Below, piece after piece: positions 4,839 to 61,005 of a stretch of 64,000 bases of DNA. The notes beneath the pieces were generated by a model, which was given only the letters and a program-made list of their open reading frames with translations, made no database searches and had not been told where the DNA came from. The stretch comes from Candidatus Norongarragalinales archaeon (GTDB lineage: Archaea > Micrarchaeota > Micrarchaeia > Norongarragalinales > Norongarragalinaceae): positions 256,001-320,000 of the forward strand of contig JAWABJ010000001.1 of assembly GCA_038884755.1 (NCBI GenBank), given 5' to 3'. The first letter of the stretch is position 1. Every line of letters begins with the position of its first letter. The translations under genes were made by a program, and so were the position numbers.

Positions 4839-7800
4839 ATGTACGACGGAAAGGAAAAAGGCGGGGGCAAGACTTTCTTCGAAAGCGTTGAAGAGTCCTA
4901 CTATTCATTTTGCGATTCGTTGCAGGAGAAAGGCATTAAGGTTTACGACTGGTTCGTCGACCCTCTCGAGAAAAACGGCATTCCCTCGCTTCCGGTAATG
5001 CTGCTCATTCTGTTGGCAGTGCTTTTGGGCGCAGGGTGGCTTTTGTTTAATCCCGCGCAGGGCTCGGGCGCGTATTCCTTGAGTGTGAGCATAACCACGG
5101 AAAAAGGTCCGGTCGACGACGCGTTTGTTTCTCTTTTCAAAGGCAGTTCGCTCGTGGCGAAGGAAAAAACGCAGGCCGGGGTGGCTTTGTTCGAAGGGAT
5201 TGAAGGCGGGGAGTACTCGATTGAAGTTGAGAAAGAGGGTTTCGAGAAAACCGCGCAAAACGTTCTCGTGCCCGACCAGGATTACGTTGAAATAACGCTT
5301 AAGCCCGGAGTTCAAACGCGCACGCAGCCGAACGGCAAAACCACGCCCAATTCCGTGAGTTTCAACAACCTCGACTTTCCGTCGGGAAGCGGAAAATTGG
5401 TTTTGCATATATTCGTAAATAGTCCCGGCGGGCAGAGCTTGAACGCTATTGCAACAGTGTACGACAAGCGCTCGATGGCTTCGCTTGGAACCGTGAACGT
5501 GAAAGACGGGTGGGGCACTTTCGACAGTCTTGAGGAAGGAATGCTGGTTTACGCCGACGTGAGCGCAGAAGGCTTTGCGCCTTACTCGGGTTCGGAAAAC
5601 GCCATTACAATTTCCAAAAGCGGAATCAACTCTCTTACCGTAACACTTTCGGCCTTGACCGGCGATTTCGTTGAAACTCTTGTTCGCGTGAGCGACTTGC
5701 AGGACGCGCCTGTTGCAGGAGCTTCAATCCAAGTTTTTCCCGCTGGCTCTGCAACTCCCTTGACTTTGTCCAATTCGCTTACTGATTCCAAGGGAATGCT
5801 CAAGCTTTTTTTGAATTCTAAAAACGAGTCTAGGTACAAGCTTCTTGCGGGCAAAACCGGTTTCGACGACACGGAAAGCGAGTGGTTCAAGGCAGGCGAG
5901 CCTGTCGCAGTGCGCTTGCACAAGCCCGGAGAATATACCGAAGACGAGAAAAGCCGCTCTTCGGCTTTGAACGCGCTTGTCACGCAAGAAGGAACGCCGG
6001 TGAAAGGGGCGGTAGTAACAATCGCGGGCGAAGGGCTTGTAACGCGCACGAGAGCCACAGACGCGCAGGGCAAGGCTTCGTTTTTCCTTTTCAACAAGCG
6101 CGGGTTGAACGTGGTTGCAAGCGCGGTGAAGGGAAACAGGGCTGCTTCCAAAGAGTTGGCTTTGGACGCTGCCGAAGTTTCGGTTGAATTGCCTTTGCAG
6201 AAAGCTTCGGGAATAGTAACGGTTAAAGCGGTGCGGTATTCCAACCAACAGCATTTGGACGCTTTGTTTGAAGCGCGAGAAAACAACGCGCTGCTTTCTT
6301 CTTGCGCTACCAACGGCGCAAGCCAAGAATGCGATTTGCAGGTTCCGCTCGGAACTACGGTTCAGATAACCGCTTCCTCGCAAGGCTTCGTTTCGGAAAC
6401 GCACGAGGTGGTTGTGAACGCGCAGCAAATGTCTTACTCTTTCGCGTTGGTTTCGGAAAACGAAGTCCAATATTCGCAAATCAAGGACTTTCGCGTTACG
6501 CTGGAAGGAAGCAACGAAGCTGTTGAAATCCTTTATCCTGGAAAGCGTTACGAAGCTAAATTCACTTTGTTGGGCAAAACGCAAAGCACCGCAGACTCGT
6601 TCGGGTTTTACTTTTCCGTTGATGCTTCCAAAGCCGCGATAAAGAAAGTCACTCCTCCGTCTGCACCTGCGAAAACCTTGGGTTCCGCAACTGCCGCTTG
6701 CTCTCCAACCCAAATCAACTACAACAACGCTAACGCGGCGTGGGTGGATTTGACTTACCCCGGAAGCAATTCCGTTTCCAGCAAGAGCGTGAGAGTGGTT
6801 TTCGAAGTAAAGCCTTTGCCTGAAGGCGTTTTGGAGGAAAACACGATTGTGAAATACCGCAGTTTTCTCGTGCAAGGCGGGAAATACTACCGCAATCCTT
6901 TGAATGCGAACGACCCGCCTGAAAGGCGTTTTGACGCGAAAACTCCTTTGGCGTCCGGCTGCGATTCGCCGGCAATAAGCCGCACGTTCGTAATTAACGC
7001 CGCGGGCGTGTCGTGCAACAATTTTGCGTGCGTGCAAGTTGCTTTCACTCAACAGGGCGCGCAAAGCGCGAGGGACGGTTTCGTGGCTAAGGGCGGAGAC
7101 AATCCCGCGCCAGTGATAATGGCTTTCGAAATTGCCATGCGCACCGCGCAGTTGCAAGGGGAGTTGGGTTTGTCTTTCAACGCGCCAGGCGGGTTTTTGG
7201 GCTTGCTTTCGCTGAAATACCCTGGAATTCCCGACGAGCAGGGCACTCCGCCCGAATTTCCGACTGTGCTCGAGTTCAACGGCAACGAAGGTTCTTTCTC
7301 CGTTTCGGTCGACCACTTGAAGTCTTACGCGAATTTCGAAGCGGGTTTCGTTTTCGGGGGGCAGGTTGCGTTGAAGCCCTTGGCGAAAACAAACCATTCT
7401 CAACTGTTTCTGCAAATTGCAGACAGCTCTAACGGGACTAGGCATACTGCGACCTATGGCGTCGTCACCAATGAAACCATAGGCGGCGGGGGCGTTTCGA
7501 ACGAAAGACTTTCGCTGCTTCCCGGCTCGCAGGATTCTTGCGGCGGCTCGCCTTTCGTAATTTACGACCCGGGCTTGAGAAACCAGATTTTGCTGAAGCA
7601 AACGCGGGATTTCCAGACGCAGTGCGGGACTGTTGAAATGCGCACCACGCCTTTGTTTCCGGCTGACGCGGTTAAAATCACTGTCGACACCGCCGAAAGG
7701 CTTTTGGTTAACGTGACTGAAGACGACGGTTCGAGCATTTGCTTCGAATCGTGCTCTTTCGGCAGGGACGGTAAGGTCGACGAGTCTTCTTGCATACGCG

Positions 7801-10355
7801 ATTTCTCTGCTTTCACTAGAAACGGGACGAGCGTCTTGCGCTACAACCCCGAGGCTTTCGCGCAATGCCGGGCTTTCCAGGCGATTGCGAACGAAGTGAA
7901 GCCCGCGAGGGTTAAGATTGAATTGGGAAGAATTGGAAGCCAATTGAAAACGCCCATAGTGATAGACGTTTCTGGCATTTCCGCTTTCGAAGCGCCTTCG
8001 CTTTTCATAGGCCCCATCTTCTCGCCGGTTGAAGGTGGGGAGAGTGCGAAACTAGCTTACCCGCAGTTGTGGGCTGTAACGAACTTGAAGCAAATAGGGT
8101 CTAGGAACGTTCAAATGTACCTGGCGCAGCCTTCCGACATCAACCAGCCTATCGAACCGCTTTCTCTCGTCACTTTCGCGGGGCCGGGAACGCAGACGAT
8201 TGCGCTGAACCCAAACCCCAAGAGCTTGGTGCTAGTTGCGAAGGAAAACGACGAGATTATTTTCGTGCAAGGCAACCCGGCCCAAAGCAGGGTAAGCGGG
8301 TTGACCGAGTACGCGCAGGAATTCTCGTTGAAAACGCGGTTTTCTGGTGAAAGCACGCAAGAACTGCAAAACCTGCTTTACTCCAACACCGGCTTCAATC
8401 CTGTTGTAGTAAAAAGGATTTTGGAAAAGGCGCTTGCGAAAGCAAAGCAAACCGCGTTCTGGAGGAGCGACGGTTCGGCGTGGTGCAAAGACACGCCTGT
8501 TTGCGTGAACAACAAGTTCCAGCCTTTCGCCGAATGCTGCCGCGCCACGCGCGAAGACTGGCTGGAGGGAAGCGTTTCTTTCGAGCAGACTACCGAGCCT
8601 TGCGCGTTTGAAGACGGAACTCCCGCTAAATTCTGCAACAACCTAGGTTATCCCCAGGAAAGCGGGAATTGGAATTCCCATCAGTCGAAGTGCGCGGTTC
8701 CCATTGATTTTGCTACTTCCGCGCCTTATTGCACGCAACCCGAAGGCTTTGCGCCGTCGACGCAAGTTTACTGCGACTCGCGCTGCGCGCCGCGGGAAAT
8801 AGTAGTGGGCGTTGACGAGAACGAAGAGCCGATTACCGAATTCACCATGGGCTTGGAAGTCGCTTACGGCGATTCTTACAAGGAATCGTTCCAGTCGCAA
8901 GCCAAATCGTGTTCGGCGGACGCGGCTGCAAAGCAAAATTCCATGAGCAATGTGGACTTTCAGTCTTGCAAGAGCAAAGGATTCTTGTGCCCGATTTTCA
9001 CTAAAATCAAAAACTCGGTTGACACGCCGTTGTGCGTGCCTGCTTCGGTTCCGGATTCCCGCGGCTTGATTTCGATAGATGAGGACGGCGAGGGCCCAAC
9101 GTGGGAGTACGCTTCGCTTGCAGACGGGAGTTGGAAGTGCCCAGCGCAACACGTTTTTGCGGTCGCCGACGCCTGCTTCCAGGAGGCTTGCACTACCTAC
9201 TGCAGCACTTACGGACTTGAAGGCCTTGCGCCCCGATGCGACGAGAGCGGGTACTGCGCGCCCGACGGCACGCGCACCGTTCCAAAAGTGATTTACGACG
9301 AGGAGGAAGTGGGGCCGCTGGTGGAAGTGCCATTTTCTTCACTGGCAGGCAACGAAACCGACTCTCCCTTGTCTTTCTTCCCGTCCGCTTACGACCGCGG
9401 CTTCGCGTACCGCCTGCCTTTGAACACGCTCATCCAGCCTGACGACGTTGAAATCGAAGAGGCTTTCGCCAACGCCGGCCTTCCGCTTCCAGACTCTTGC
9501 ACCGCGCAAGGCAATTTCACTTACCGCGGGTTGTACGACTTGCAGTCTTTGCTTTCGAAAGGCAGCCAAGGGTTTTTCTGGAACCACGCTTTTTCCGTGT
9601 TTTCGATTCCCAACAACGCGTACCACAACGTTCCCTGCGCTTTGGGCTTGGGCGCGGGGCAGACGCAAACGTGCCACTTGCTTTTCATCGACCAGCGCGG
9701 GCGCAACGACGCGTGCATCAAAAGCATAACTCAATTCGATTATTTTGAAGAAGCGCCGCCAATCGCTTTTGAAAAGCCGGGCTTTCCGCTTTCGCAAATG
9801 AGTTTTGCAGGGCGCACCGGCATTTTCAAGGGAACTAGGCAATTTGCAATAACGCCTACCGGATACGTAGTTGCGTTGCGCTACGGCTCGAGCACCCGCC
9901 AAGTGTTCGACTGGTGGAAGCCCGAAGGTTCTTACGCTGGAGCAATAACGTTCACTTGGTCTAAATGCAAATTCTGGTGCCAAGTGTGGAAGTTCGTCAA
10001 GAGCGTGATTAAGGTCGCGATAGTAGTAGGGCTTATTTACCTTGCAATAAACCCCGGCGCCCTGGGGCCGTTCTTTTCCAAATTCGGGATTATCAAGTTT
10101 ATGAAAGCAGGAGGGAATATAGCTGCGCACTACGCTTTCACGTCCGCCGCAGCTGAAACGCTCGTGGTTACCGTGGCTGCCATGGCGTCTTCCAGCCTGG
10201 CCGGGCAAGGCTTGTCCATATACACTCCCGACTTCAGCACCGAAGGGTGCAAGACCGCGGGCGTAGACCAAGGCTGGAACGAGGCGGAAACGCAAGCGCG
10301 TTTGCTCGGGTGCAAGAAAAGCTCTTGGAAAGTCGCGAGCACCACGCCCGCGTAA
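4839..10355 (+). CDS. Giant membrane-anchored surface protein A (1838 aa): conserved leader + TM, carboxypeptidase-regulatory/prealbumin-like beta repeats, Cys-rich region, hydrophobic C-terminus
   Basis: Repeated V.V....G.P..GA.V.....T...G.A.F units; YY.FCD.L...G...P.E..GIPS leader; many Cys in the C-terminal half. Confidence 0.85.
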   Translation: MYDGKEKGGGKTFFESVEESYYSFCDSLQEKGIKVYDWFVDPLEKNGIPSLPVMLLILLAVLLGAGWLLFNPAQGSGAYSLSVSITTEKGPVDDAFVSLFKGSSLVAKEKTQAGVALFEGIEGGEYSIEVEKEGFEKTAQNVLVPDQDYVEITLKPGVQTRTQPNGKTTPNSVSFNNLDFPSGSGKLVLHIFVNSPGGQSLNAIATVYDKRSMASLGTVNVKDGWGTFDSLEEGMLVYADVSAEGFAPYSGSENAITISKSGINSLTVTLSALTGDFVETLVRVSDLQDAPVAGASIQVFPAGSATPLTLSNSLTDSKGMLKLFLNSKNESRYKLLAGKTGFDDTESEWFKAGEPVAVRLHKPGEYTEDEKSRSSALNALVTQEGTPVKGAVVTIAGEGLVTRTRATDAQGKASFFLFNKRGLNVVASAVKGNRAASKELALDAAEVSVELPLQKASGIVTVKAVRYSNQQHLDALFEARENNALLSSCATNGASQECDLQVPLGTTVQITASSQGFVSETHEVVVNAQQMSYSFALVSENEVQYSQIKDFRVTLEGSNEAVEILYPGKRYEAKFTLLGKTQSTADSFGFYFSVDASKAAIKKVTPPSAPAKTLGSATAACSPTQINYNNANAAWVDLTYPGSNSVSSKSVRVVFEVKPLPEGVLEENTIVKYRSFLVQGGKYYRNPLNANDPPERRFDAKTPLASGCDSPAISRTFVINAAGVSCNNFACVQVAFTQQGAQSARDGFVAKGGDNPAPVIMAFEIAMRTAQLQGELGLSFNAPGGFLGLLSLKYPGIPDEQGTPPEFPTVLEFNGNEGSFSVSVDHLKSYANFEAGFVFGGQVALKPLAKTNHSQLFLQIADSSNGTRHTATYGVVTNETIGGGGVSNERLSLLPGSQDSCGGSPFVIYDPGLRNQILLKQTRDFQTQCGTVEMRTTPLFPADAVKITVDTAERLLVNVTEDDGSSICFESCSFGRDGKVDESSCIRDFSAFTRNGTSVLRYNPEAFAQCRAFQAIANEVKPARVKIELGRIGSQLKTPIVIDVSGISAFEAPSLFIGPIFSPVEGGESAKLAYPQLWAVTNLKQIGSRNVQMYLAQPSDINQPIEPLSLVTFAGPGTQTIALNPNPKSLVLVAKENDEIIFVQGNPAQSRVSGLTEYAQEFSLKTRFSGESTQELQNLLYSNTGFNPVVVKRILEKALAKAKQTAFWRSDGSAWCKDTPVCVNNKFQPFAECCRATREDWLEGSVSFEQTTEPCAFEDGTPAKFCNNLGYPQESGNWNSHQSKCAVPIDFATSAPYCTQPEGFAPSTQVYCDSRCAPREIVVGVDENEEPITEFTMGLEVAYGDSYKESFQSQAKSCSADAAAKQNSMSNVDFQSCKSKGFLCPIFTKIKNSVDTPLCVPASVPDSRGLISIDEDGEGPTWEYASLADGSWKCPAQHVFAVADACFQEACTTYCSTYGLEGLAPRCDESGYCAPDGTRTVPKVIYDEEEVGPLVEVPFSSLAGNETDSPLSFFPSAYDRGFAYRLPLNTLIQPDDVEIEEAFANAGLPLPDSCTAQGNFTYRGLYDLQSLLSKGSQGFFWNHAFSVFSIPNNAYHNVPCALGLGAGQTQTCHLLFIDQRGRNDACIKSITQFDYFEEAPPIAFEKPGFPLSQMSFAGRTGIFKGTRQFAITPTGYVVALRYGSSTRQVFDWWKPEGSYAGAITFTWSKCKFWCQVWKFVKSVIKVAIVVGLIYLAINPGALGPFFSKFGIIKFMKAGGNIAAHYAFTSAAAETLVVTVAAMASSSLAGQGLSIYTPDFSTEGCKTAGVDQGWNEAETQARLLGCKKSSWKVASTTPA
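6735..6924 (+). repeat. Identical blocks (23, 35 and 70 bp) shared with 12339-12528
   Basis: 6735-6757=12339-12361; 6780-6814=12384-12418; 6855-6924=12459-12528. Confidence 0.95.
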
Positions 10356-10397
10356 AAAATCTTAACCCTTTTTTAATCTCTTTTTCTAACGATTTGT

Positions 10398-13300
10398 ATG
10401 GAAAACCAGCCGACCGGAGGCGAACAACCGCCTTCCATTCCAGCTAAAAGCAATCAAAAAACTTTGTGGGACAATGTTGAGGGAAAATACTATTCTTTTT
10501 GCGATTGGCTGCAAGACCACGGGCTTCCCATTTACGATTTCTTCGTTTACCCTCTTGAAGACAGGGGCATTCCTTCGCTCCCGGCTTTCGTGATTATCCT
10601 GCTGGCTTTGCTGCTGGGCGCGGGCTGGATTGCGATGGGCGGGCTGTCAGGGCTGGGACAGCAGGCTTACGCCCTTCAAGTGAGCGTTTACAGCGAGCAA
10701 GGTCCCATCGAAGGGGCAATCCTAACGCTGTACAAGGACGGCGGGGTTGTCTCGAAAACAAAGACGAATTCCGACGGGATTTCTTCTTTTGAAGAACTGC
10801 AGGCGGGGGATTACGCGCTGGACGCGGAGAAGGAAGGTTTTGAAACCGCTTCGCTTGCCGTTTCAGTCCCGCGAGAGTCAAGCGTGGACGTTACGCTGGT
10901 TTCAAAACAAAAAATCAGTTTCGAAGGCGGAAAGCAGCCTAACGGAAAGAAAACCGAAGAAGGGCCTTTCAACGAAATTGACTACGGCGACTTGTCCCTC
11001 AAGATTTTTGTTACTGATATAGCGGGCAACCCTCTTGACGCGACTGCGAACGTTTTCGACAAGAACGCGGGAACGAAAATAGGGACTGTTATCGTAAGGA
11101 ACGGCTTCGGCTCGCTCGACGGTTTGGAAGCGGGCATGGTCGTTTACGCGGACGTTTCCGCCCAAGGCCACGTGCCTTACTTGGGCAAGAACAACGCGAC
11201 CACGATTTCTGCGGAATCCCCGAATTCCATAAGCGTAAAGCTCTTCAAAATCACGAACGACACCGAGTCGAAAGCCACGCTCGTGAAAGTGCGTGATTTG
11301 AACGGAACGCCTTTGAACCAGGTTTTGATTAAGGTGTTTCGCAAGGGCAATCCTTTTGCGTTGATCATTCCCAACCAGTACACGAACGCAACCGGCGAGC
11401 TTGCGATAGACTTGAATTCAAGCGGAAATCCCGATTACAAGATTCTCGCTTCCAAAACCCCGTATGTGGATACTGAAACAAGCTGGTTCAAGGCCGGAAC
11501 GAAAGTTGAAATCACTCTCAAGAAGCAAAGCGAAATGAACCAGTCTGACAAAGACAAGGCTTCCAACCTTACCGTGACGGTCACGTTCAATGGGAGCGTG
11601 GTGGCGAATGCTGCGGTCGCCGTATTCCACGACGAGCTTGCGACGCGCGAAGGGTTTACTAACTCCCAAGGCAAAATCAGCTTTTACATCTTGAATTCTC
11701 GCGGGCTTACGGTTACGGTGAACGCTTCCAAAAACAACATGGCCGGCTCGAAGCAAGTCGCTTTGGATTCCGAGCAAGTGCAGGCGAGCGTGGAGCTTGA
11801 ACGGCGGAAGGCAAGCGTGCGCGTGAGGGCGTTTAACTATTCCAACGGGTTGTTGATTGAAAACGCGGCTTTCGAGGCGAAAACTGGAGGCGCAACTGTT
11901 TCTTCCTGCGCCGTTTCCGCACCCAACTTCGACTGCGTGCTGCAAATAGGCATAGGCTTGAACGCGGAAATAAACGCTTCCGCCCCCACGTTCGTTTCCG
12001 AAACGAAATACTTGTCCGTAAACAACGAAACCATGGCGTTGGACTTCAGCCTGCTTCCTGAATACGCGGTGCAGTCTTCCCTCATCAAAGATTTCGTGGT
12101 GACGCCCGAAGGAGGGAATTCCAACGTAACCACGCTATACCCGGGAAAACGGTATGAGGCTAAGTTTACTCTCATAGGAAAAACCAACAGTACGAGCGAC
12201 GAGTTCGGTTTTTATTTCGGCGTTGAAACCGCCCGCGCCGTAATCAAGCGCGTGACGCCGCCTTCAACCCCCACGAAGACCCTCGGTTCTACGACCGCAG
12301 CGTGCAATCCCGTGCAGATAGACTATAATAATGCGAATGCGGCGTGGGTGGATTTGACTTATGCTGGTGCGAATGGCGTGTCGAGCAAGAGCGTGAGAGT
12401 GGTTTTCGAAGTAAAGCCGCTTGGGCAGGGCGTGCAGGAGTCGAACGTTACGCTCCGCTACCGCAGTTTTCTCGTGCAAGGCGGGAAATACTACCGCAAT
12501 CCTTTGAATGCGAACGACCCGCCTGAAACGCGCTTCGAGCCGAAAAGCCCGCTTGCCTCTGGATGCAACTCGCCTACGTTCAATGCGCTTTACGCAATCA
12601 ACGGCGTGGGCGTGAGCTGCAGCGAGTACGCTTGCGTGAGCGTGTTGTTCACGCAAAACGGACAGCAGAGCGCGAAAAACAACTTTACCATGATGAATTT
12701 CGGCGAGGGCTCCACGCCTCCGGTCGTAATGCTTTACGAAATCACGTTCAAGAAAGACGTTCGCAACAATCCCGCGGACATTTCTTTTTCCTTCAACGCA
12801 CCCGGCAGTTTCATAGGCTTGGTTTCGGCGAGTTATCCCGACCAGCCCGACGAGCAGGGCACTCCGCCGCAGCCGCCGAACAAAATAGAGTTTTTGAACG
12901 GCACTCCCCAGTCTTTCTCTGCCGATTTAAGCCACTTGAAGCGTTACTCGAACATGGACGAGGGCTTCAAGTTCAACGGCGATTTCGTCATAAAGCCCTT
13001 GTCTTCCTCGAACGTTAGCGGGGAGGGCATAACTCTGCAACTCGCGCAAGGAGTTGATGCAGTCCGGCACAACGCCCTTTACAACATTCAAGCCAACGGT
13101 TCTCAAGGCGGGTGCACCCAGAATTGTAATGAGCAGGTGGAAAACAGCGCGAAGCTGCAAATGCTTTTGCGCCAGCGCAGGGACAGCGGCAGTTACATCA
13201 CCAACCCGCTTTCGCTTTACGCAATCGGCTTGTGCTCTTACGAAAGCATACTGCATTCGTTCCTGCAAGTGGGTTTGCCAAAGTGCGCCGGTTCGTTCGT

Positions 13301-16143: not shown

Positions 16144-16205
16144 AATAGGATTTGTGCAAAGCGCTTTTATTAAGATTGAGTTCAATTGTTTTTATAGCTG
16201 GTTTA

Positions 16206-40764: not shown

Positions 40765-41280
40765 TCATCCCGGTGGCGTTGGAACTTCATAGTCTATTTC
40801 CGGAGATGGTTCCAGCGAAGGCTGTGGTTGTGTGTCTTCCACTAACTCTTCTTCGCTATTTTCAACAAAAACATCTTCCGGCGTTTCTTCCTGTTGTTGT
40901 CCGCTTTCACTTTCTTCTGACGATTGAATGTTTTCATTATCTTCTGACGATTGAATGTTTTCATTAACGGTTTTTTCTACCGTATTTTTTAAAGTTTGTG
41001 GGGAAGGGTTCAATTCCAAGTTTTTTTCAATAGAACTACTAACCTCTCTTGAAGGTAATGGCGGGTGCAAGAAGAACGCGGAAGTCAAAACCAAACCCAA
41101 AAATAAGATTATCGCCGCGTTTAAGGACGGAATTCCCCTGTCTTCCAGCGGGTATATGAACCACTCGTAAACCCTCAACCCCTTGTTTTCAAGCCAATCG
41201 CAAACTCCGTAATAATAGTTTTCAAGCTTTTCCCAAAAAGTAGGAGTTTTTGAATCCCCTTGTCCCTTCTCTCCGTACAT
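40765..41280 (-). CDS. Short (171 aa) member of the giant-protein leader family with acidic low-complexity tail
   Basis: ENYYYGVCDWLENKGLRVYEWFIYPLEDRGIPS + TM, then an E/S/P-rich tail. Confidence 0.8.
   Translation of the reverse strand: MYGEKGQGDSKTPTFWEKLENYYYGVCDWLENKGLRVYEWFIYPLEDRGIPSLNAAIILFLGLVLTSAFFLHPPLPSREVSSSIEKNLELNPSPQTLKNTVEKTVNENIQSSEDNENIQSSEESESGQQQEETPEDVFVENSEEELVEDTQPQPSLEPSPEIDYEVPTPPG
40913..40966. repeat. Perfect 27-bp tandem duplication (NENIQSSE[D/E] x2)
   Basis: TCTTCTGACGATTGAATGTTTTCATTA at 40913-40939 and 40940-40966. Confidence 0.95.
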
Positions 41281-43749: not shown

Positions 43750-43786
43750 GCTTCTGTTCTTTATTTGATGACGCCTGCCTTGTTTT

Positions 43787-44662: not shown

Positions 44663-44730
44663 TTTTTTATCGAAAACGCTTACGGAAAAAGAAATTAAAA
44701 CGCTTTTGTTGCACATACTACCCTGCAGTT

Positions 44731-44898: not shown

Positions 44899-44958
44899 CT
44901 CCGTTTTTCAGAAACGATTTAAATCTTTTTTTTTTCCATATTTCGTTCGTATGCCGGC

Positions 44959-45166
44959 AAAACCCACGCCGCGCGCAATCGGAGTTTCGCTCTTGCGCGT
45001 CGCAGTCCACGAAGATGTTTTACACTTTTTTTTTCACGAAGAGCATTCGAAGCCCAAGCCGATTCGCTGGGCTTTGCAATTCGCGCTTTGAGGACGTACC
45101 CCGCGTGGAGGGTGAAGCTCCCTCCTCAAACCCAGCACCAGCCTAAGCTACAATAGCACGGGTTTT
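44959..45166 (-). ncRNA. Candidate structured RNA or 3' UTR element of unknown class
   Basis: Several long helices that close only on the minus strand through G-U pairs. Confidence 0.35.
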
Positions 45167-45719
45167 AGCACTTGAACGTCGAAGCCATGTAGTTTACCAT
45201 TTTCAAGTCTTGCTTGAGCGAAACGGGTATTAGCGAAGTGAGTATTGCGTTGTAGGAAGGGCATTCGAAGTAATGCAGCCTTACCGTGATTTTTTCTCCC
45301 GCGATTTCTTTTTCGAAGGAAATTACCGTCGCCTTGCCGAACGCTTTTCCTTGCGAAAGGGTTTTCCTTTCCTGCGAATCGAGCGAATCTATAGTATCCG
45401 CGGTCAGGGACTGCACGTTTTCGCTTGCAACAGTTATTTCAACCACTTCCGCAATTCCGCGTCCGGATGCGCTGAAACTCACGCGGATTGGGCTGGAAGG
45501 ATCGGGCGATTCGACGGCCCTGAACGACTGCGGATAGCTTATCTCGAATCCAAGCTCGTTCCTGTAAGCAAGGAAATCGTCTTGGCTTACGCCCGAGTAG
45601 TCTTCAAACGCATTTGCCCCGAAGAAGGGCTGAACGTAACCCAGTCCCACGAGAATGCCTACCGCTAGGATTACCGCCGTGACAATCGATATTACCGTTT
45701 TGTTCATGTGTTTCATCAC
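45165..45719 (-). CDS. Membrane-anchored protein with PsbP-like signature, last gene of the giant-protein cluster
   Basis: N-terminal TM, Y.N..GF.ISYP..., C-terminal M..TF; start overlaps the stop of the 3040-aa gene. Confidence 0.7.
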   Translation of the reverse strand: MMKHMNKTVISIVTAVILAVGILVGLGYVQPFFGANAFEDYSGVSQDDFLAYRNELGFEISYPQSFRAVESPDPSSPIRVSFSASGRGIAEVVEITVASENVQSLTADTIDSLDSQERKTLSQGKAFGKATVISFEKEIAGEKITVRLHYFECPSYNAILTSLIPVSLKQDLKMVNYMASTFKC

Positions 45720-54700: not shown

Positions 54701-54829
54701 AGAAAAGAGATACAAATAGCCTATTGCAAGCAGCACGAGCAGCGCGAGGGGAATTGCCCATGGCGGGATTCCCTTTTCTTCCAGCGAGTAGGAAAAGTTT
54801 TCCCACCACTCGCGCACTCCTTCAAGCAT
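45716..54829 (-). CDS. Giant membrane-anchored surface protein D (about 3040 aa): beta repeats, degenerate cupredoxin insert, novel repeats, Gly/Ala hydrophobic C-terminal region
   Basis: Half leader (LEEKGIP) + TM, carboxypeptidase-regulatory-like repeats, shared WVD...RS.F...R.P.D core. Confidence 0.85.
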   Translation of the reverse strand: MLEGVREWWENFSYSLEEKGIPPWAIPLALLVLLAIGYLYLFSPGQQAGSVSVKVFSAAGDPISGASVTLQGNGVSETQKTGSSGEAFFEKIPPGEYRGAVYSTDAVFPDAGSFSISVANNELSQKSVYSQAVQTRKVSLSASVDGPEAAKIQLYDDSGNIVGERFGKTAFFSVEPNSQYTLKASADGFEDETVEVSVGQSDSPAKRITLLPTGEEKNGVLYVGVFDTIGVDGNPIQNASVTVFDAATNEKLLSLNTGEAGTTEPQQLALGRQVKIVVEAKGFAREAKTISIAAETEEKFRLAESAEPEGFFLRVVDGNDDAVADAAVQLLSEKTVVGEKTTRADGSADFDGVEKTKSFSAMAFKTGFLPAFKERVSSGEQLALEKADESNSATITVKVVDAAGQGVSEASVILQDDRGRPIGFPARQTGVDGIQGWENVPYKKTVAVASKDGRVGKSKAFTPRQGAEIQITLPKTQGTVLATVSDQFTLQPVPNAVINLVSESGAVAKCSTNSKGECAAKIMEGKTFARITAEGFEEFQSSEFKVPPSTEAKQNFHIISTSAVQAGLYFQGLFDLQGNRVKNLLSPFTTYNAKYSLASGGLEFNYANAHVRIGSQDEPLENLPAVISSYKTVGVVQRGIDYSQASSFLPPLQQQAQNKIIITENAFVPANAIVQAGDTVNWVSQDDNAHSINADDGSFASPQLRRGSTFSRTFNQEGVFYYSDGLKPSTRASVTVVAKKTSSAQQQTQTKGVKWVDYSIPTFKGTKEITIQIKTTASTGSFALEHRSAFNLPGGLLRKPEDPQAGQGKNELLAETQQSGVFEISTQGYCDKTSCVQYWFDNGKQTLEAKYPDEFNLHVKIYSETTQPLTLSGDNAVQVKSLSPVKGEEGEGTVQGNSASITLEQQGGIAEAVAKFQPRKLASDASIKLKAGAIEKTIRLRVVSKEKLSLRETHSPKELVALEQAKLVFSVTDSAGFPVDGATVSFNGIQFSETKEGTYEAAVTPDFVGDGEFQIAKEGFEVLKGTVRVKTPESMVRIQPEAIQAVLSQPSTAVNLKLENLLKNQVTVSSAIVETIEDPQHTAFEIKVQAKAKTQEAEPALKPRESKDFTLNASLKTIPFAARPTRLRESLKGHAVFVFTVGGFSKEQRVPLQIETDYQQKTLDSLWSIETPTVEFVLSPSNPTAEKKVRLSSESPLPLLAGFDLKEPGLFADPASIVIEPNGMGEFTLKKTLLPEQASDCFALSAGGEQKLSIAVSFQGIVSKKDLTLKTTFAQTQNCKPENAVELTLPFSTDLMLAKSVQAKENADGSVAMRVGGETLAFDTGASISEEKDRITIPTGTKFYLAPQRVSKQANTARFSLPVDARMEMPSNAEVKNNNQGGFSVLMPRSIASFPAAVVLGTEGGRTVAVIPKGTTVEFINLAEETKNPNAPGGGDQWIDPRLLNPMPFDPIELSLPVEFLMRFPQGSMVIDPQKTQQQASNIPGAWNYYAQYYPQNVRGVFYPPQNRFAFSSEAQIKQATGGLVEVLVPRDSQFFVPAGVARVDKDIILVTFPVPVELRFPSNSIVVQDANTKRKNTVKAADDVAVQFAFDVQLNAQGGGAKSVIVPPFSTVAFLKGATASVIEDPNTYSKCDFEITTAEEVIVDIPSGAKVFETSKPKIALLPQCTKVTVKTKDREEKELVTTPKVKRIEAGEFRHSGNSLFVPEKTSVKFKVCNPEKSDEESKRASITFAKESALSLPANYRDRVKSGEIAFGGKHKEILVVDEGVKYNVGRTDKLSITPKDKLVIPDKADSDGRILVGVPAQSKLSFIPTCEEASGDFLVRGTIPMSITEETGSAKELDAMTITLNNSLLQGLSGTQSNDFQKIIYVSNPGSTEYAVTAIRADGEAVKAFRKGSFTRTTEQGQQAVIAPFKQGEEQVMLLFYIPEEAIQPSSSGFGSCIKEDKQYVYEGNVVFDMQQKEEQDEKKLKTKVILDAKVVPCTAKAIEEQTKDLNLIVDGTGSSAPGAEGGIDLQGDKLFSFKNAGHKRYYAYSNNLNEPLQLSFPNDGQQISCFYYDNARGASVAGGKILAKGESIFLECEAKHASASDYKIIAKGARTGEERVKTLKVQVFTPPAGSESLYPSTPIGTLWVGATGEKPTPTPSPVAGAQLKKKQVQCDPGFNYAYCQNNFCTYDSAINAICNFMSVASMKFDAETNDTSSVKTVCTNLPWKMSFVLHLSNTRAAADLDDAMKQMAEQIGRQSKFKEFKVSEQAKIDFTGCGAYLVEAHLNPAASGGFCEFDPKKIEGGKKPLQIEFRSQKLMSCEETLANAPLLMPADDLFVYTGNEIIESPVNMRFNGLPDFIEIGKYSEKADANDYKMAGQIVSSMYSLSPQVFDNLNTNGFVDSSKPFFDDGALCEANVQGMKNALAIGWHGGTAAACASAFIPGPQQGFIARLCANLILYNVETLSSCGIVKGVSASNACTGTDFCTHLRFVMYPQAFIDAGFGGPASAAFRQIALRALGSATFTYVSSAITGSVEDPTAVYGGSNIAAVTGGSFGRQTGAFTAVALSPVTGAVIEGYASDYFAAQRLDELVAKSTLTGSESEEMRYLYNEFFRSGRQSHQFNFGEITPDVKNRILSDVERKATARITQEGTALVPYRAIVRRPNMLPVPYQRYLPVPFLPQEIPAAGASSAAGQAATSARASYYSYYRAATNPGGVFSTTKNAYERINNNFFNINYGNQNFGTVHGGQNIGGPTGGGAGAGGAAPATGGTPQQVETGGAPTQPVSTPQVQKPRGIARIGRLLAQYAPTALLSLITNVQSEPVEAPLAERVTNYLVSMHFAENGNPSTVAYCYYDPATKKCDKEKRLCFTQQACEGKEACLYVKKLDIPYSGVVQKGEKIPAYAMFFIDASGGSYDYIELFDSLFAPDVEPTFQGNVEAELTEKEIGAPCDYSQEGDSEETAAGDAREQAQGSVETLAAIANGDASFDAVKNARQTLDEMQSQGLVIVEKTPSGEEILSVQVVEGKEEEAASKAKIALENTANQMRERNA

Positions 54830-54891: not shown

Positions 54892-57800
54892 TTATCTTCC
54901 GACGGCGCACGCTTCGGCGTTTGAGACCGAGCTTTCGCTTGCTTGCAACTGGCACGTGAGCGGAGGTGCTTTTTCGTCGAGCAGGTATTTCAACGCCGCC
55001 AGCACGGACTTGAGCGAGTTTTGCGCGTCGAGCTTGACTGGGTTGTCCGCGTCTACTTTAAACATCACTGTCAATTCGAATTCAGGAGTGGCTGAAGGCT
55101 TTTCGTCAAGCTTCTTTTCCACGAGGTTGGGTGAAAGCTTGGGTTGCACGTATTGAAACCCTTCGTAGGCTTTAGGCGTGGGTGTAGGGCGGGGTGAAGG
55201 CAGGGGGCTTGGAGACGGGGAGGGCAACGGCGTTGCAGAAGGGCTGGGGGCCGGAGGCGCGATTGGTTTTATCGAAATCGAGCTTTCGTTTCCCGCCTTC
55301 AAGACTACTTTCACGGTTTTTTCAGTCGCTAGCGCGTTGCTTTTGATCGCTTCTTTCACTTGCGCCGAAAGCGCTTCCTTGCTCAACTCTTGCTTGAAGA
55401 ATTCCGCGAGTTGCGCTTGTTGCGCGTTGGAGAAAACGGAAAGGAAGTCTTTAGTGTCTATTTCGTCGGCAAAGCCGTACTTGTTCATGGTTAGGAGGTT
55501 GGGGCTACCGCCGTCTCCCTTCAATTCCGCCGGGTTTCCGGCCTTCAAGTAAGGCATTCCGCTTGCTGCAAATCCGGAAGACGACTTGTCGGTGCGCTTG
55601 TAGTCTTGCGTTCCAAAACCGTAAGTGCCTTTCAGCTCCACTATGACCGCGTCGTCGTTCAAAGGAGTTTGGAACTGCGCGTCAGAGTAAGAATAATCGA
55701 ACGGGTTTCCTGCGTCGAACCCTGGGCCGAATTGGAACGGGTTGTTGTATAAAGCGCCCGGCACGCACCTTCCCATTCCAACGCTAGGGTCGAACTGGCA
55801 TTGGTTGGGGAACGGGCATGTGGACTGGTCTCCTGGAACACATTGGCTTCCGAATCCTTGCATTCCGAAAAAGTCGTCGGGATAGCCTCCAGACTGGTGC
55901 AACCCAATGCTTTCGCTGGGTTGGAACGAGTATACCACGAACCCGCCTTTTTCTCCGGCAATTTTAACGGGAACGTTGATGAGCGTGTCGAGATTGCGGA
56001 AAATGCGGTGGTTGACTTGTATGGGCGCCCTGCCTGGAAGAATGTATTGCGTCACGAGCCTGCGCGCGAGGGTGTTGAGATAACCGCCGGGAAGCCCGAC
56101 CGAACCGCTTGTCGCGTAGCTCGCAAGGTTCAAAACTTCAGAATCGCAAGTCGCGGCGAGAAAGCCGCTTGCGAAAGCGTCTCCCATGTTCAAAGGCAGT
56201 TCTTGAGGCGAGAGCCTGTTTGAAGCGCAGCGTTGCCTCAAGTCCCCGATGGGGTCTTCGCCCGCTTTCTTGCAAGCTTCGTACGCTATAAGCCCGGCAA
56301 GATAATCTTGCAAGGCTGAAGTCATGGCGGTTTCAAGCATCACGCGGTCGTAGTCGAACGCTTGCGTGAACGAAACGGAGTCCATGGTTCCAGTTATTTT
56401 CCTCAAGTCTTCCGAAATCTCTTCCTTCAACGCTTGCTCGAAATCCTTGTTGTTTTCAATAAAACAGAATTCCTGTCCAGTGCAAGCGCTTACTGCATCC
56501 ACGCCGGTTCGCGCGTTGCCCACTGCGTCGAAAGAAGCTTTTTCAATGTTGTTCTGGATTGTTTTGATGTTTGGCTGCGTTTTAGTGCCTATTTTGAACT
56601 CGTAGCCTTCGGCAGGAAAGCCCACTGCAACGCTTGCAATGTCTTTGGCGGGAATCTTCGCGTCGCCCACTTCCACGCTTTCAAACTGCAGGTTGTTGGC
56701 GATTACTGCTGGTTCGACCGCGTTGTTCACGCGCGTCGCTATGCCGTTCAAGCTTTGAAAGTTGGGTGCCGAAGCAATCGCGTACTTCGAACTCTCTCCC
56801 TCGATTTTTAGAACTATATCAAGTTTTACGGCTTGCCCGAGGTTGGACGCGTCGCGGATTGTCAGCGTGAGTTCGTTACGCCCTTGCGCGGGCGTGAGCG
56901 TAACGCCTTTCTCTTGGTCGTAAGAGTACTCCGCGCACCCTGGCTGGTCGGGCTCGAACAAAACTACGAGCGTGGCGTACTGCCCTCCGGGCAGTCTGAA
57001 CGCGCCGCTGATGGTTTTCCGCGCGAAATCGCCTATTTTTGCCAGCCCGATGTTTTCGACTTTCCTTATGCTGAAGCACTGGGGCTTTTTAGTTTCGGTA
57101 GCGATTTGAGTGTTGAATCCCAACGCGTTTTTAAGGGATAGTGCGATGCCGTTGCTCGGAACGAGCGGGGAAACTTTCTTGGTGCAAACGAGCTTTCCGT
57201 TTTGTATTTCACAGTCTGGGCTCGCGCGTTCGATTTGGAAGAACGGAGGGCGCGGAATGCGCACAATTCGGTTTGTGGCGCTTGCTGCGAGCGCGCGGTC
57301 GTTGCGGTTGGGGTTGAAAATGCGTTGTGCGCTCATGAATCCCAAGCGCGACGCGAGCAGCGAGCCCAAATCAAAGCGTTGCGCAGCGCAAAAATCTGCG
57401 GTCTTGTTTTCCTGGGTTTTCCTCTGCTCGCATCTTTTGAATTGGTTGTTTTCGTAAACCGCCTTGCAAGCGCCTTGGTTTTGCAGGTTTATGCACTGCC
57501 CTTCGTTGCAAGCGGTGCAGTTTTCTTTCGAGCATGCTCCTGGAGAAGGCGTGGGGGAAGGTTCTCCCAAGCTCGCGCAGTCAACCACGAAATTGGTTTC
57601 CGCGAATCCAGCAGACCCGCTTCCTTCAAGAACGCTGTTGAACGCCAGGCTGCAGTCGGTGTTCTTGATTGGCCTCACCCTCACTTGCGTTTTCTCATTC
57701 TGTCCCGCCTTGCCTTTCTTCATGGTGAACGGCGAGCGGGGCGGCTGCAAGACTTCGACGCACTGGCTTTCGTTGCTCCCGCCGGAAACTTGGTAGTGGA

Positions 57801-60800
57801 CTTGCGCTTCGACCGGAATGGTTTTAGTCAAAAGCAGTTGCACTCCGCTGTTGCAGGCTGTCGCGCCTGAAACGAAAACGTCCGTCGGCTCGACGTTCAA
57901 AAAGTTCGTTGAAACTACTGGCACGTCGCGCGACTGGGCTTTGGCGAATTCAACTCCCGCGTCTGCTTCGACTGCGAAAGTCCCTACAGTTCTCGGGAAA
58001 ACGCTTTTGAAGACGTAAATGCCGTTCTTGCCCGAGTCTTTCTGCCCGTCTCCAGCAAGAGTGTTTCCGCCGTTGGGAAATCCCAAGAACGGGTGGGTTT
58101 CGCCAGTTTCTATGATAGTGAGCACCGCGTTTTCAATTGGCCTTCCTTGCGCTGTAGTGAGCGTGACACGAAGGGGCTGGAATTCAGGGTCGTTCGGGGG
58201 AACGTTCGCTTCCATGACTTGAGGCGTTACGGTCAAAACCATTTGTCCAGTTCCAGTAAACTCGAGCACCGCGTCTGTTGCTGCAATCGGCCCGCCGTCG
58301 TCGGCAAACTCGGCTTTCACTGGCATGTAGTTTCCAGGAGCGCGTGCGTTCGCGATTGTCGAAACAGTTGCTTCCCCATCCACAAGAGCAGGCTGGTGCA
58401 ACTGTTTTTCTATTTCAAGCTTGTTCGACGTTGTGGAAAACCTTGCGATGGGGTTTTCTACCGTTTCGGGCGCGAAGGCTTTGACTTTCGCTTCGAGCAA
58501 AACCTGCTTTCCGAATTCCACGCTCAAAAACCGCGAGGACGTTTTGTTGTCGCTTTTCAGCGTAAGCGTAATGCAGCCTTTGTCGGTGCACTTTTGAAAC
58601 CCTTGCGTAACCTTGTATTCGGAGCTTAGGGTTTCAGCAAAACAATGTTCTTTTGCCGGAACGTTTTCTTTAGTCCCAAGCTCTGCGTCTTCAGGCACTC
58701 TCGCCCACAAGCCGTTCTTGACTGCGAAAGCGCGGTAGCGAAAGTCTATCTTTTCGTTCGCTATTGCCGTGGGGCGAATGCGTATTTTGGCGGAAAGCGT
58801 TTTCACGCCGACTTTTCCAGACGGGTATGAAAACGAAACCCATTTTCTTTCCGAACCGCTTTGCTGTTGCGCCTCTTGCAGGCAAGTGTTTTCTTGGTTG
58901 AAAGTGTTTCCAAAGTCTATTTGCGCGCGGTCTTCCTGCGGCGGCCTGTCGAACGAAGCGATGAACGCCTTTTCTTCGGCAATCGCCTGCTTGTCGCCCA
59001 CCCGCAAGTAAAACCCTGTCTTCTGGGCTTGCGGGAAGCTCACGACGAGCGAAGCCTTGTACCATCCTCCCCTTTCCAGTTCTGTTGCAGAGTGTTCGGC
59101 GTCCAAAACCCCGCTTCCGGTGGAATCCATCTTGTACAAGGAAAAGTTGAGTATTTGCACGTCTTTCGCAAGGTTGGAAGGAAGCATGAGAATGGTTTTC
59201 GCCAGCTCTTGGCCTGTTGCGAGCGTAAGCTCTTCGCTTTGCGTGACTGCATAGCCGTCCGCTTCGGCTTTCAAGAGGACGGGAACGTTGGCGTAGACCG
59301 AGAGGTTGCAGTAAGAACCGTTGGAAGGAGTGTTGCATGACGCTATAGCCTGGTCTTTGTAGAACGCGGTTATGGTTGTGTTTTCAACGAAAGTCTGTTG
59401 CGATTGCGAATAATCTTGCGCGCGTGCGAGTATTCTCGCGAAATTCCTGTCGAGCGTGACTTCAATGGCGGTGGTTTCGCCGGCTTGCACTGCGAAAACG
59501 TCGCTCGAACCACTTTGCGAGCCGAAAATAGCGTGCGCCTTCATTTGCTTGTCCGACTCGACTTCGCTCAACAGCGCGATGCCGTCGCTGTCGGTTTCAG
59601 TTGCCGGATACCCCAAGTTGAACCCGTCTTCAGAAACGAGTTCAACGCTCGCGCCCGCGACAAGCTGGCCGTCGGCATTCCTGACTTTAACTTCAAGCTC
59701 TCCGTTGTTGCCCGCGACTGCTTCGACCAACGACATTTTAGTCGATTCGCCCGCTCGCAGTTGCCTGCTGGTTTTAGGGAGAAAGCCGTCGGCAAAGGCG
59801 GTGGCGTAAAAGTTTTGCGATTTTGAAACTTCGAATTCCGCAATTCCAAATTCATTAGTGTTTTTGTCGTCGATTGTTTTGAACGGCTTTGCGAACAGGA
59901 ACAGCTTTACTTCCGCGTTCCCAAGAGGCTCTCCAGCCTCGTCCGTAACTTGAATAGTGAGCTTGGAATAATCTATAGGCAGCTCGTTGTTCTGTTTTTT
60001 CTTGAGAGAAACGACGAATTCAGTGTTCTTGTCCCCGCGGACGGCTTGAACGTCGTTATTTTCAGCGCCCCTGTAAGGAGCGAAATCGTCGTGCTCTGCA
60101 TTAACGTAAATGCTTACGCCTACAACAACGCTTTCCTGGAAGAAAACCGTTCCCTGCGGGTCGGTGTACCCGCCGGTAATCGCTTCCGAATACCCGTCGG
60201 CGTTGTAGAGCGAAACGAACGCGTTTTCAACCGGGTTTCCTTTCTCATCCTTGACGTGAACGACTATGCTCCCTTTAACTTGTTCTTGTACCACGCTCGC
60301 CTTAAGGGGAATCAGGCATTCTTTTTGCGAGGGAATGCAGTTTTTGAATTCAGACTCGAACCCTTCAGCAGTAACGCGAAGGCGGAAGACCGCGTCTTGG
60401 TTGGAGTAGGTTATTTCGGCTTCGCCCAGGGCGTTGGTGGGATACTGCTGGAGGCTTCCGGTTTCAGGGTCGGAGAAAGTTACGAGAGCGTCGGGAACCG
60501 GGTCGCCTTCGAGGCTTGCGACCACCACCTTGAACGTTTTGGTGGAAGGCTCGAGCATCGCGATTATTTTCTTTCCCGTAAGCACGACTTTCTTTTCGTA
60601 CTTTCCCGAAGGGTGTTGGATTGAAAGCTCGGCAGTCGCGTCTTTGGGAAGTCCTTCTAAGCGGGCGACGCCGTTCTTGCTTATGGCAGAAAATTCCTTG
60701 CCGTCTTCGAGCGTGAGGAGCACGCGCGCGCCGGTGACAGGCTCGTTGCTTTCGCTCAAAACAGTTACTTCCACTGCAACCGTGTTTCCGAACGGAAGTC

Positions 60801-61005
60801 CGAACGAAGAGCCCGCGAGAACGAAAGCAATTCCGCCTATTATTACGGCCAGGAGGAGTATGAAGAACGGGAACGACGGGACTCCGCGGTCTTCGATAGG
60901 GTTTACAAACCAATCGTAAATTTTCAGTCCTTTGCCTTGCAGCCAGTCGCAGAACGCGTAGTACTTGTCTTCAATCGAGAAATAGAATTTCGACAAAGGA
61001 TTCAT
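54892..61005 (-). CDS. Giant membrane-anchored surface protein C (2037 aa)
   Basis: EDKYYAFCDWLQGKGLKIYDWFVNPIEDRGVPS + TM, beta repeats, core domain, Cys clusters, PSPSP linkers. Confidence 0.85.
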   Translation of the reverse strand: MNPLSKFYFSIEDKYYAFCDWLQGKGLKIYDWFVNPIEDRGVPSFPFFILLLAVIIGGIAFVLAGSSFGLPFGNTVAVEVTVLSESNEPVTGARVLLTLEDGKEFSAISKNGVARLEGLPKDATAELSIQHPSGKYEKKVVLTGKKIIAMLEPSTKTFKVVVASLEGDPVPDALVTFSDPETGSLQQYPTNALGEAEITYSNQDAVFRLRVTAEGFESEFKNCIPSQKECLIPLKASVVQEQVKGSIVVHVKDEKGNPVENAFVSLYNADGYSEAITGGYTDPQGTVFFQESVVVGVSIYVNAEHDDFAPYRGAENNDVQAVRGDKNTEFVVSLKKKQNNELPIDYSKLTIQVTDEAGEPLGNAEVKLFLFAKPFKTIDDKNTNEFGIAEFEVSKSQNFYATAFADGFLPKTSRQLRAGESTKMSLVEAVAGNNGELEVKVRNADGQLVAGASVELVSEDGFNLGYPATETDSDGIALLSEVESDKQMKAHAIFGSQSGSSDVFAVQAGETTAIEVTLDRNFARILARAQDYSQSQQTFVENTTITAFYKDQAIASCNTPSNGSYCNLSVYANVPVLLKAEADGYAVTQSEELTLATGQELAKTILMLPSNLAKDVQILNFSLYKMDSTGSGVLDAEHSATELERGGWYKASLVVSFPQAQKTGFYLRVGDKQAIAEEKAFIASFDRPPQEDRAQIDFGNTFNQENTCLQEAQQQSGSERKWVSFSYPSGKVGVKTLSAKIRIRPTAIANEKIDFRYRAFAVKNGLWARVPEDAELGTKENVPAKEHCFAETLSSEYKVTQGFQKCTDKGCITLTLKSDNKTSSRFLSVEFGKQVLLEAKVKAFAPETVENPIARFSTTSNKLEIEKQLHQPALVDGEATVSTIANARAPGNYMPVKAEFADDGGPIAATDAVLEFTGTGQMVLTVTPQVMEANVPPNDPEFQPLRVTLTTAQGRPIENAVLTIIETGETHPFLGFPNGGNTLAGDGQKDSGKNGIYVFKSVFPRTVGTFAVEADAGVEFAKAQSRDVPVVSTNFLNVEPTDVFVSGATACNSGVQLLLTKTIPVEAQVHYQVSGGSNESQCVEVLQPPRSPFTMKKGKAGQNEKTQVRVRPIKNTDCSLAFNSVLEGSGSAGFAETNFVVDCASLGEPSPTPSPGACSKENCTACNEGQCINLQNQGACKAVYENNQFKRCEQRKTQENKTADFCAAQRFDLGSLLASRLGFMSAQRIFNPNRNDRALAASATNRIVRIPRPPFFQIERASPDCEIQNGKLVCTKKVSPLVPSNGIALSLKNALGFNTQIATETKKPQCFSIRKVENIGLAKIGDFARKTISGAFRLPGGQYATLVVLFEPDQPGCAEYSYDQEKGVTLTPAQGRNELTLTIRDASNLGQAVKLDIVLKIEGESSKYAIASAPNFQSLNGIATRVNNAVEPAVIANNLQFESVEVGDAKIPAKDIASVAVGFPAEGYEFKIGTKTQPNIKTIQNNIEKASFDAVGNARTGVDAVSACTGQEFCFIENNKDFEQALKEEISEDLRKITGTMDSVSFTQAFDYDRVMLETAMTSALQDYLAGLIAYEACKKAGEDPIGDLRQRCASNRLSPQELPLNMGDAFASGFLAATCDSEVLNLASYATSGSVGLPGGYLNTLARRLVTQYILPGRAPIQVNHRIFRNLDTLINVPVKIAGEKGGFVVYSFQPSESIGLHQSGGYPDDFFGMQGFGSQCVPGDQSTCPFPNQCQFDPSVGMGRCVPGALYNNPFQFGPGFDAGNPFDYSYSDAQFQTPLNDDAVIVELKGTYGFGTQDYKRTDKSSSGFAASGMPYLKAGNPAELKGDGGSPNLLTMNKYGFADEIDTKDFLSVFSNAQQAQLAEFFKQELSKEALSAQVKEAIKSNALATEKTVKVVLKAGNESSISIKPIAPPAPSPSATPLPSPSPSPLPSPRPTPTPKAYEGFQYVQPKLSPNLVEKKLDEKPSATPEFELTVMFKVDADNPVKLDAQNSLKSVLAALKYLLDEKAPPLTCQLQASESSVSNAEACAVGR

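Follow-up and report, generated by a model that had tools for sequence, protein, structure and literature searches.

Our analysis of a 64,000-nucleotide stretch of a Candidatus Norongarragalinales genome (contig JAWABJ010000001.1, positions 256,001 to 320,000; G000:C1:256001-320000 in our numbering), referred to here as the window, identified a family of giant surface proteins that share a leader segment directly before a single N-terminal transmembrane (TM) helix. This family is real, conserved and undescribed in the sources searched. In this genome (927 kb, 93% complete) it comprises four giants (A, B, C and D) and a short member (S) encoded in the window, and a sixth member, giant E, encoded outside it. 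The six genes account for 3.7% of the genome, and each of the five longest open reading frames (ORFs) of the genome is leader-bearing. An earlier sequence-only reading of the window had described five genes with the leader just before one TM helix and four giants of about 26 kb; all five segments that it quoted are present in those genes, and A to D total 26.4 kb. On the evidence presented below, the giants may function jointly as an apparatus for cell contact, clustered by the leader, a reading to which we give slightly less than an even chance and for which we infer both the clustering and the target cell.

Where names exist, source annotations describe these proteins as carboxypeptidase regulatory-like, cupredoxin-domain or hypothetical proteins. 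No description of the leader or of the giant family was found in the literature searched, a set without subscription papers and supplements.

The leader and its distribution

The leader (consensus of 39 sequences, FYxxxEDxYYxFCDxLxxxGxPVYxxFVxPxExRGIPSFP, followed by a hydrophobic helix) appears on direct reading to consist of two similar units, the second of which is retained in half versions. The likeness among leaders is not due to chance, since D and S share 46% identity over 57 amino acids (E 9e-14), B and S share 50% over 60 amino acids (E 5e-17), and a profile built from the four full leaders of the window detects relatives down to E 2e-30. No relevant match to the leader was found in Pfam, NCBIfam, PHROGs or PDB sequences, nor any usable match in Atlas, and the ESPR family (PF13018) gave no match at E <= 0.05 with either whole proteins or isolated leaders. 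The proposal that the leader is an uncatalogued conserved module therefore stood: in the databases searched it corresponds to no characterised Pfam domain or signal, and it is confined to the family in the genomes searched, with no spread into unrelated contexts in free-living archaea among these genomes and the best 150 of 806 protein clusters.

Among 30 full-leader proteins, the leader has a pairwise identity of 48.5%, compared with 23-26% for the repeats and core domain that follow it, an approximately twofold difference that is biased, as members were partly picked by their leader. The first leader helix shows helical periodicity (hydrophobic moment 0.31, compared with 0.19 for shuffled sequences) and the second a weaker one (0.35, compared with 0.28), and net charge averages -2.6. 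Complete proteins of only 157-176 amino acids, with a full leader, a TM helix and one repeat, are found in G046, G151, G220, P0066 and P0116, which argues that the leader is not merely an export aid for giants. Its form depends on the orthologue classes defined below: the full leader in D, a class-specific variant in C and the half version in E, with none recognisable in some variable members (e.g., G046 L070, G076 L046, and G142 L078 and L081). In each of the four giants of the window, a single strong N-terminal hydrophobic helix directly follows the leader, and A has a second hydrophobic stretch (residues 1719-1737). Since the rest of each protein is rich in Cys and N-glycosylation sequons, and a second strong anchor is lacking in B, C, D and E, the leader is probably cytoplasmic. 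Complex prediction with three copies of leader plus TM helix (76 of 77 alignment rows used; score 0.01, mark 0.42, own fold uncertain) gave evidence neither way.

The leader profile detected 2-8 copies in each of 28 relatives of the same order (likely Norongarragalinales), and the core-domain profile detected 4-9 copies in each of the same 28. There was no leader match at E <= 0.001 among 222 genomes of other Micrarchaeota, and a broader leader profile gave the same picture. The order has been placed as sister to all other Micrarchaeia (PMC8561730). Four weak leader matches outside the order (E 0.005-0.009, in frames of 73-310 amino acids) were rejected, as were two core matches that covered fewer than 50 profile positions in unrelated proteins, and a match on a bacterial contig (L041, E 7e-4 over 21 residues) was treated as chance.

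A protein-wide search returned 806 clusters at E <= 0.001, and the results rest on the best 150 of these. Among the 157 proteins collected, 94 of the 101 longer than 1000 amino acids also carry the core domain. Both modules are present in Iainarchaeota, as in P0167 (leader E 1.7e-13, core E 3e-30), whose cluster includes archaeon GW2011_AR10 and Diapherotrites records. The scan of DPANN genomes suggested by the sequence-only reading was thus positive in the order and in Iainarchaeota, with no convincing match in the 222 other Micrarchaeota. An Iainarchaeota-type profile further identified 66 metagenome loci, many with tandem arrays of two or three giants; a few of these loci look like Norongarragalinales proteins. 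It should be noted that P0146, P0157, P0162 and P0163 are giants of about 1900-2070 amino acids with a leader and no clear core match, possibly representing a third lineage.

Orthologue classes, stalks and distal tips

A tree of the core and the region upstream of it was built from 66 sequences, representing 10 genomes plus 12 Iainarchaeota-type proteins, and leaves out four truncated duplicates, members shorter than 1000 amino acids without a core, and the likely C copy of G142. Three single-copy classes were recovered: C (9 of 10 genomes, local support 1.0), D (10 of 10, local support 0.955) and E (9 of 10, local support 0.999). The rest of the tree is a fast-evolving variable group that includes A and B, the latter a recent paralogue of the former (47% over the first 930 amino acids). 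In profile comparison and BLAST, paralogues align only to about residue 1100-1140, whereas orthologues align further, to about 2400 in C and 1600 in D, and by BLAST free variation is limited to the last few hundred residues. The tips are therefore unrelated between paralogues, where matching ends near residue 1140, as had been claimed; the same cannot be said of orthologues from other genomes, and the description of the tips as variable gives way to one of class-specific and partly conserved regions. The fixed orthologue classes fit the multi-subunit device that the sequence-only reading had imagined. A middle region is common to D and A (profile match E 2e-6); a distal domain common to C, D, A and the Iainarchaeota type, to which similar Cys motifs pointed, may also exist, but the best profile matches lie at E 0.002-0.1.

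The stalks contain the CarboxypepD_reg repeats reported previously, present in all four giants of the window (PF13620, E 1e-13 to 1e-28). Pfam identified CarboxypepD_reg and Ig-like repeats within about the first 520 residues of these giants, a weak cupredoxin-like insert in C, and nothing else. The shared core domain is likewise real. The D core is modelled as a beta-sandwich that resembles the CnaA domain of the pilin BcpA (3kpt; Z 11.5, root-mean-square deviation (rmsd) 2.5, 131 residues aligned) and CLIPPER (9ifr; Z 10.5, rmsd 2.7, 117 aligned; also the top Foldseek match), with cohesins close behind (Z 9.7); hemolysin rows in the same comparison were disregarded (rmsd 14-25). The cores of A and D gave no match to PF01345 (CLIPPER, DUF11), and an Atlas lead to CLIPPER scored 0.84, below the reliable range of Atlas. 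The columns invariant in 38 cores are a Tyr, a Pro and two Cys; neither a Lys nor an Asn that could form an isopeptide bond is among them. Searches of PDB sequences gave nothing useful for the leader, the core or the C tip. The stalk would thus consist of CarboxypepD_reg repeats and a predicted CnaA-type pilin/adhesin domain, and the likeness of the core to such pilin domains suggests an adhesin-type stalk anchored at the end opposite to the usual one.

The tip of class C orthologues is composed of an alpha/beta domain, a Gly/Ala-rich block of about 150 residues, a hypervariable insert and a Cys-rich cap, in this order. Among the 23 orthologues found to contain the alpha/beta domain, 18 also have a detected hydrophobic block. 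The block has 23-35% Gly+Ala, 6-14% charged residues and a mean hydropathy of 0.26-0.75, and is predicted to form three long helices (mean predicted local distance difference test, pLDDT, about 80), with the insert disordered. The insert (53-454 amino acids) is slightly basic and bounded by hydrophobic helices, and contains 2 Cys in 4871 residues, compared with 260 in 9737 flanking residues. By composition and model, class C therefore places a hydrophobic segment beside a hypervariable region, for which a delivery role is conceivable. We found no Pfam family in 22 class C tips, no PHROGs match in 7 queries, no toxin family match for the insert, and no Foldseek match for the tip at E <= 0.001 in PDB or a viral library. 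VIA on a 788-residue tip model (best Z 6.9) showed neither novelty nor kinship, and an origin of the tip from an S-layer anchoring domain (9fsa, Z 6.7) was unsupported by profile comparison, for which only 2-4 S-layer sequences were available.

The class C insert contains no sequons, compared with 25.5 expected, and cytoplasmic proteins lie at expectation (203 compared with 212, and 21 compared with 19.7), which fits an exported region kept unglycosylated. Sequons are also scarce in the distal halves of C (15 compared with 100 expected), D (31 compared with 99) and E (8 compared with 73), and avoidance is milder in the variable group (126 compared with 168); the stalk of B is enriched in them (26 compared with 13). 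As read from these sequences, sequon avoidance points to exported regions that must stay unglycosylated and falls short of proving translocation. A distal uncharged, Gly/Ala-rich window of 60 residues with mean hydropathy above 0.6 was found in 20 of 52 giants, including 8 of 8 class C proteins and 9 of 25 variable members, and in 3 of 52 stalks; under another window definition, 8 of 48 complete giants of the metagenome loci have one.

Downstream of C, 18 of 23 loci encode a membrane-anchored PsbP/DcrB-like protein with two invariant Cys, a gene that is conserved rather than insert-specific. PsbP/DcrB-fold chaperones are known to shield TM segments of type VI effectors. A second recurrent neighbour, lying upstream of E in 6 genomes and upstream of D in one, encodes a 510 amino acid protein with a pilin-type signal.

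The domains identified in 44 non-C tips include fn3, PEGA, DUF6970, M23 and DPBB_1, and no toxin-like domain was found in these tips apart from the M23 and DPBB_1 of a single protein. An M23 peptidase domain (PF01551) is present in five class E giants (E 1e-18 to 3e-29) with intact HxxxD and HxH motifs. Of 68 genomes searched across the order, 30 contain M23 and 35 contain SLT domains; five M23 domains lie inside frames of more than 2000 amino acids, all of them the class E giants just mentioned, and no frame longer than 1472 amino acids has SLT. M23 and SLT are mostly separate proteins in the order, though some share a frame or are adjacent (G145, G263, G264). An extracellular M23B peptidase in the type genome of the order has been mentioned as a possible sign of predation or parasitism (PMC8561730).

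A possible cell-contact apparatus and its alternatives

Several known systems resemble the giants in part. The ESPR (PF13018) of proteobacterial autotransporters is a conserved extension before the hydrophobic segment and is known to head only very large secreted proteins. The leader likewise extends giant exported proteins ahead of their hydrophobic segment and is conserved, but it has no Pfam match and also heads proteins of 157-176 amino acids; unlike in ESPR proteins, the adjoining helix is likely retained, because most members have no other anchor. In contact-dependent effectors such as Rhs proteins and Tse6 (with EagR and EagT6), the translocation segments are hydrophobic and the chaperones DcrB/DUF1795-like, and class C resembles them in its Gly/Ala-rich hydrophobic helices, its variable payload-like region and the adjacent, weakly PsbP/DcrB-like gene. 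The differences are that no type VI secretion or two-partner components take part, that the giants stay tethered, that the partner is membrane-anchored with a Cys pair, and that the insert is internal.

Fibrillar adhesins and pilins share with the giants tandem beta-sandwich repeats, one CnaA-type domain and variable distal domains (10.1101/2025.04.25.650565), but the giants are N-terminally anchored behind a conserved leader, do not match PF01345, form a fixed trio, and have conserved Cys and no invariant Lys or Asn of the isopeptide type. The archaeovorins of predatory Omnitrophota, proposed to attach to prey and degrade prey walls, are also giant membrane-bound proteins with occasional wall-lytic domains (10.1101/2023.11.21.568195); they are described as having many TM helices and SecA, HEAT or dockerin domains, whereas the giants analysed here (1,300-5,200 amino acids) have one N-terminal anchor and none of those Pfam domains. 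Large proteinaceous contact devices have been described in DPANN cells, namely the cone and filament of YN1 (PMC11420986), whose component proteins are stated there to be unknown, and the envelope barrel of ARM-1 (10.1101/2024.05.20.594898). Nothing ties the giants to these structures, and they were not found in the other Micrarchaeota orders sampled. In sum, the giants would work as a set of tethered adhesins with tips that seek membranes or cut walls, and they belong to no named family beyond their stalk domains.

If the giants do form a contact apparatus, they would be exported by Sec and held by an uncleaved signal anchor with the N-terminus inside, where the amphipathic leader, on the inner face of the membrane, would gather the subunits or bind a cytoplasmic partner. 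The Ig-like stalks would reach past the S-layer, D could serve as a scaffold, and the A/B group would act as glycosylated adhesins that bind. Giant E may open walls where it bears a hydrolase, and C may insert its helices, shielded by the PsbP/DcrB-like protein, into the membrane of the target cell and perhaps carry the variable insert through it. The target may be bacterial in some lineages. A bolder version, which we consider unlikely, is an ancient Sec-exported, tethered attack or feeding machine common to Norongarragalinales and Iainarchaeota, and of a sort so far undescribed, in which the leader clamps a C-D-E heteromer within the membrane, E breaches the wall, and chaperoned C, with its disulfide-stapled helical bundle lodged in the target membrane, threads a variable payload through.

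A number of observations weigh against these proposals, and the weakest step is the one from a fixed gene set to a physical complex. The C, D and E genes are often unlinked. The PsbP/DcrB assignment is weak (PDB 2xb3, E 0.032), with 4 of 18 members matching Pfam PsbP below the cut-off, and in none of the 66 metagenome loci was a C tip, a PsbP-like partner or a pilin-like gene detected. Sequon avoidance spans the whole distal half of C, D and E and not the insert alone, and is absent from 27 Iainarchaeota-type giants (393 compared with 375 expected); the distal hydrophobic window is found in 0 of 10 D and 3 of 9 E proteins. As for wall lysis, a single class E protein with M23 and a weak DPBB_1 match emerged from the scan of 44 non-C distal regions, all five M23-bearing E proteins belong to a single family of genomes, and neither M23 nor SLT was matched in this genome, its own E included. 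In addition, M23 occurs in 40 of 222 other Micrarchaeota without the giant family, compared with 12 of 28 relatives in the order, and is therefore not specific to carriers of the family.

Alternatively, the giants may be independent fibrillar adhesins or surface enzymes, whose leader, shared by descent, sets topology or aids type II insertion in the manner of an extended signal peptide. We regard this as somewhat unlikely. A classical stalk of CnaB-like and CnaA-like domains, scattered genes, several members without a recognisable leader and the assortment of tip domains are all consistent with it, but it leaves unexplained why short proteins retain a full leader, why three single-copy classes with class-specific leader forms run across the order, and why the leader is better conserved than the stalk. 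A clearly less likely alternative is that the giants are structural struts that hold or space the S-layer in the manner of SlaB, with the leader as membrane footing. Their presence in 28 of 28 relatives would agree with this, as would the position of S next to an S-layer paralogue, the S-layer genes 2.6-4 kb from giants in L044, L052 and L055 (two genomes; not so for most copies), and a middling match of the split alpha/beta part of the C tip to the S-layer anchoring domain 9fsa (rmsd 3.7, 121 aligned). However, the giants match neither PF05124 nor the genome's own S-layer protein in sequence, and that protein bears an S_layer_C domain of its own and is encoded about 137 kb before the window. 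Other Micrarchaeota have S-layers according to the literature, yet 222 of their genomes yielded no family member, and hydrophobic tips and M23 would be unexpected in struts.

It is very improbable, in our view, that the distal C helices re-enter the producer's own membrane, making C polytopic and the insert an ordinary cytoplasmic loop. The nearly Cys-free, slightly basic insert between hydrophobic helices would suit such a loop, but cytoplasmic proteins are neutral in sequons and the insert has none, and the helices are weakly hydrophobic and Cys-stapled.

With respect to lifestyle, the sequence-only reading had suggested that the giants possibly mediate host contact in a symbiotic archaeon, a suggestion that is now weakened. 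Norongarragalinales have been proposed as possibly host-independent and Iainarchaeota as putatively free-living (PMC12892359), and the terms "surface protein", "adhes", "carboxypeptidase", "pili" and "S-layer" do not occur in the main text of that paper. Symbiotic attachment to a host is therefore not established, given that the carriers belong to what are proposed as the least host-dependent lineages and that the 222 other Micrarchaeota yielded no member of the family. For studies of how DPANN archaea hold and tap other cells, the family supplies testable parts: the leader as a marker, the class C helical block, its partner gene and the M23 tips. If the giants are a contact device, a dependence on other cells, or predation on them, would follow for lineages proposed as free-living; if the attack machine were true, supposedly free-living DPANN archaea would be contact predators or transient parasites, some of them of bacteria.

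Window features and neighbouring genes

Table 1. Members of the giant family, their parts and associated genes (window positions unless a contig coordinate is given).
Feature	Position	Strand	Description
Giant A	4839..10355	+	1838 aa, variable group; full leader, TM, CarboxypepD_reg repeats, core, distal hydrophobic stretch
Full leader of A	4890..4988	+	residues 18-50, then TM helix 51-69
Core domain of A	6462..7061	+	residues 542-741
Distal uncharged Gly/Ala-rich hydrophobic stretch of A	9993..10184	+	about residues 1719-1782
Giant B	10398..16055	+	1885 aa
Full leader of B	10479..10577	+	residues 28-60
Core domain of B	12066..12665	+	
Short member S	40765..41280	-	171 aa; full leader 41125-41223, TM, acidic low-complexity tail, no repeats, no core
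Partial paralogue of the genome's S-layer protein	41296..42327	-	16 nucleotides upstream of S, same strand; E 3.5e-20 to S-layer residues 465-711
PsbP/DcrB-like partner of C	45165..45719	-	N-terminal TM, two invariant Cys; start overlaps stop of C
Giant C	45716..54829	-	3037 aa, single-copy class C; half leader 54761-54808
Core domain of C with inserted cupredoxin-like domain	52298..53143	-	weak Pfam match for the insert, E 0.001
Class C distal alpha/beta domain ('pre')	47654..48403	-	
Class C Gly/Ala-rich, charge-poor, Cys-stapled block	47240..47653	-	predicted bundle of three long helices
Class C hypervariable insert	46487..47239	-	no Cys, no sequon, predicted disordered
Class C conserved cap	46055..46486	-	helix and Cys-rich beta region
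Giant D	54892..61005	-	2037 aa, single-copy class D; full leader 60874-60972
Core domain of D	58546..59172	-	residues 612-820; predicted CnaA/DEv-IgG beta-sandwich, pLDDT 91.6
Giant E, sixth family member, outside the window	G000:C1:600746-607813		2356 aa, half leader; about 280 kb past the window end
510-aa pilin-type-signal protein of this genome	G000:C1:599129-600688 (L001:5130-6689)	+	no Pfam or PHROGs match

Several other genes lie close to the giants. The tpi-like and argS-like genes before giant A (window 2007-4793; named from sequence) flank family giants in 7 genomes each, and giant B is directly followed by a gene for a RelA/SpoT-domain protein (E 4.5e-17, window 16152-17753, + strand). 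Two ftsZ-like genes, also named from sequence, are located directly upstream of giant D (window 61186-63654, - strand), and ftsZ-like homologues lie near giants in G046, G076 and G148 too. Downstream of the C operon are genes for a SpoIIM-family membrane protein and a PLD-like protein (window 43174-45010, - strand), which were not recurrent in the neighbourhood comparison.

Elsewhere in the window of this archaeal genome, we identified a sigma-70 protein of bacterial type with regions 2, 3 and 4 (region 2 E 1.7e-12; window 27523-28518, + strand) and a stand-alone protein resembling the LigD primase-polymerase (E 1e-4, below the cut-off; window 23634-24560, - strand). Outside it, a helix-turn-helix-like protein (G000:C3:6313-7233) has an S_layer_C match in its C-terminal part, and contigs C5 and C8 of the same assembly carry two long ORFs with near-identical coiled-coil-like N-terminal sequence, which resemble tape-measure proteins and may be viral or misbinned.

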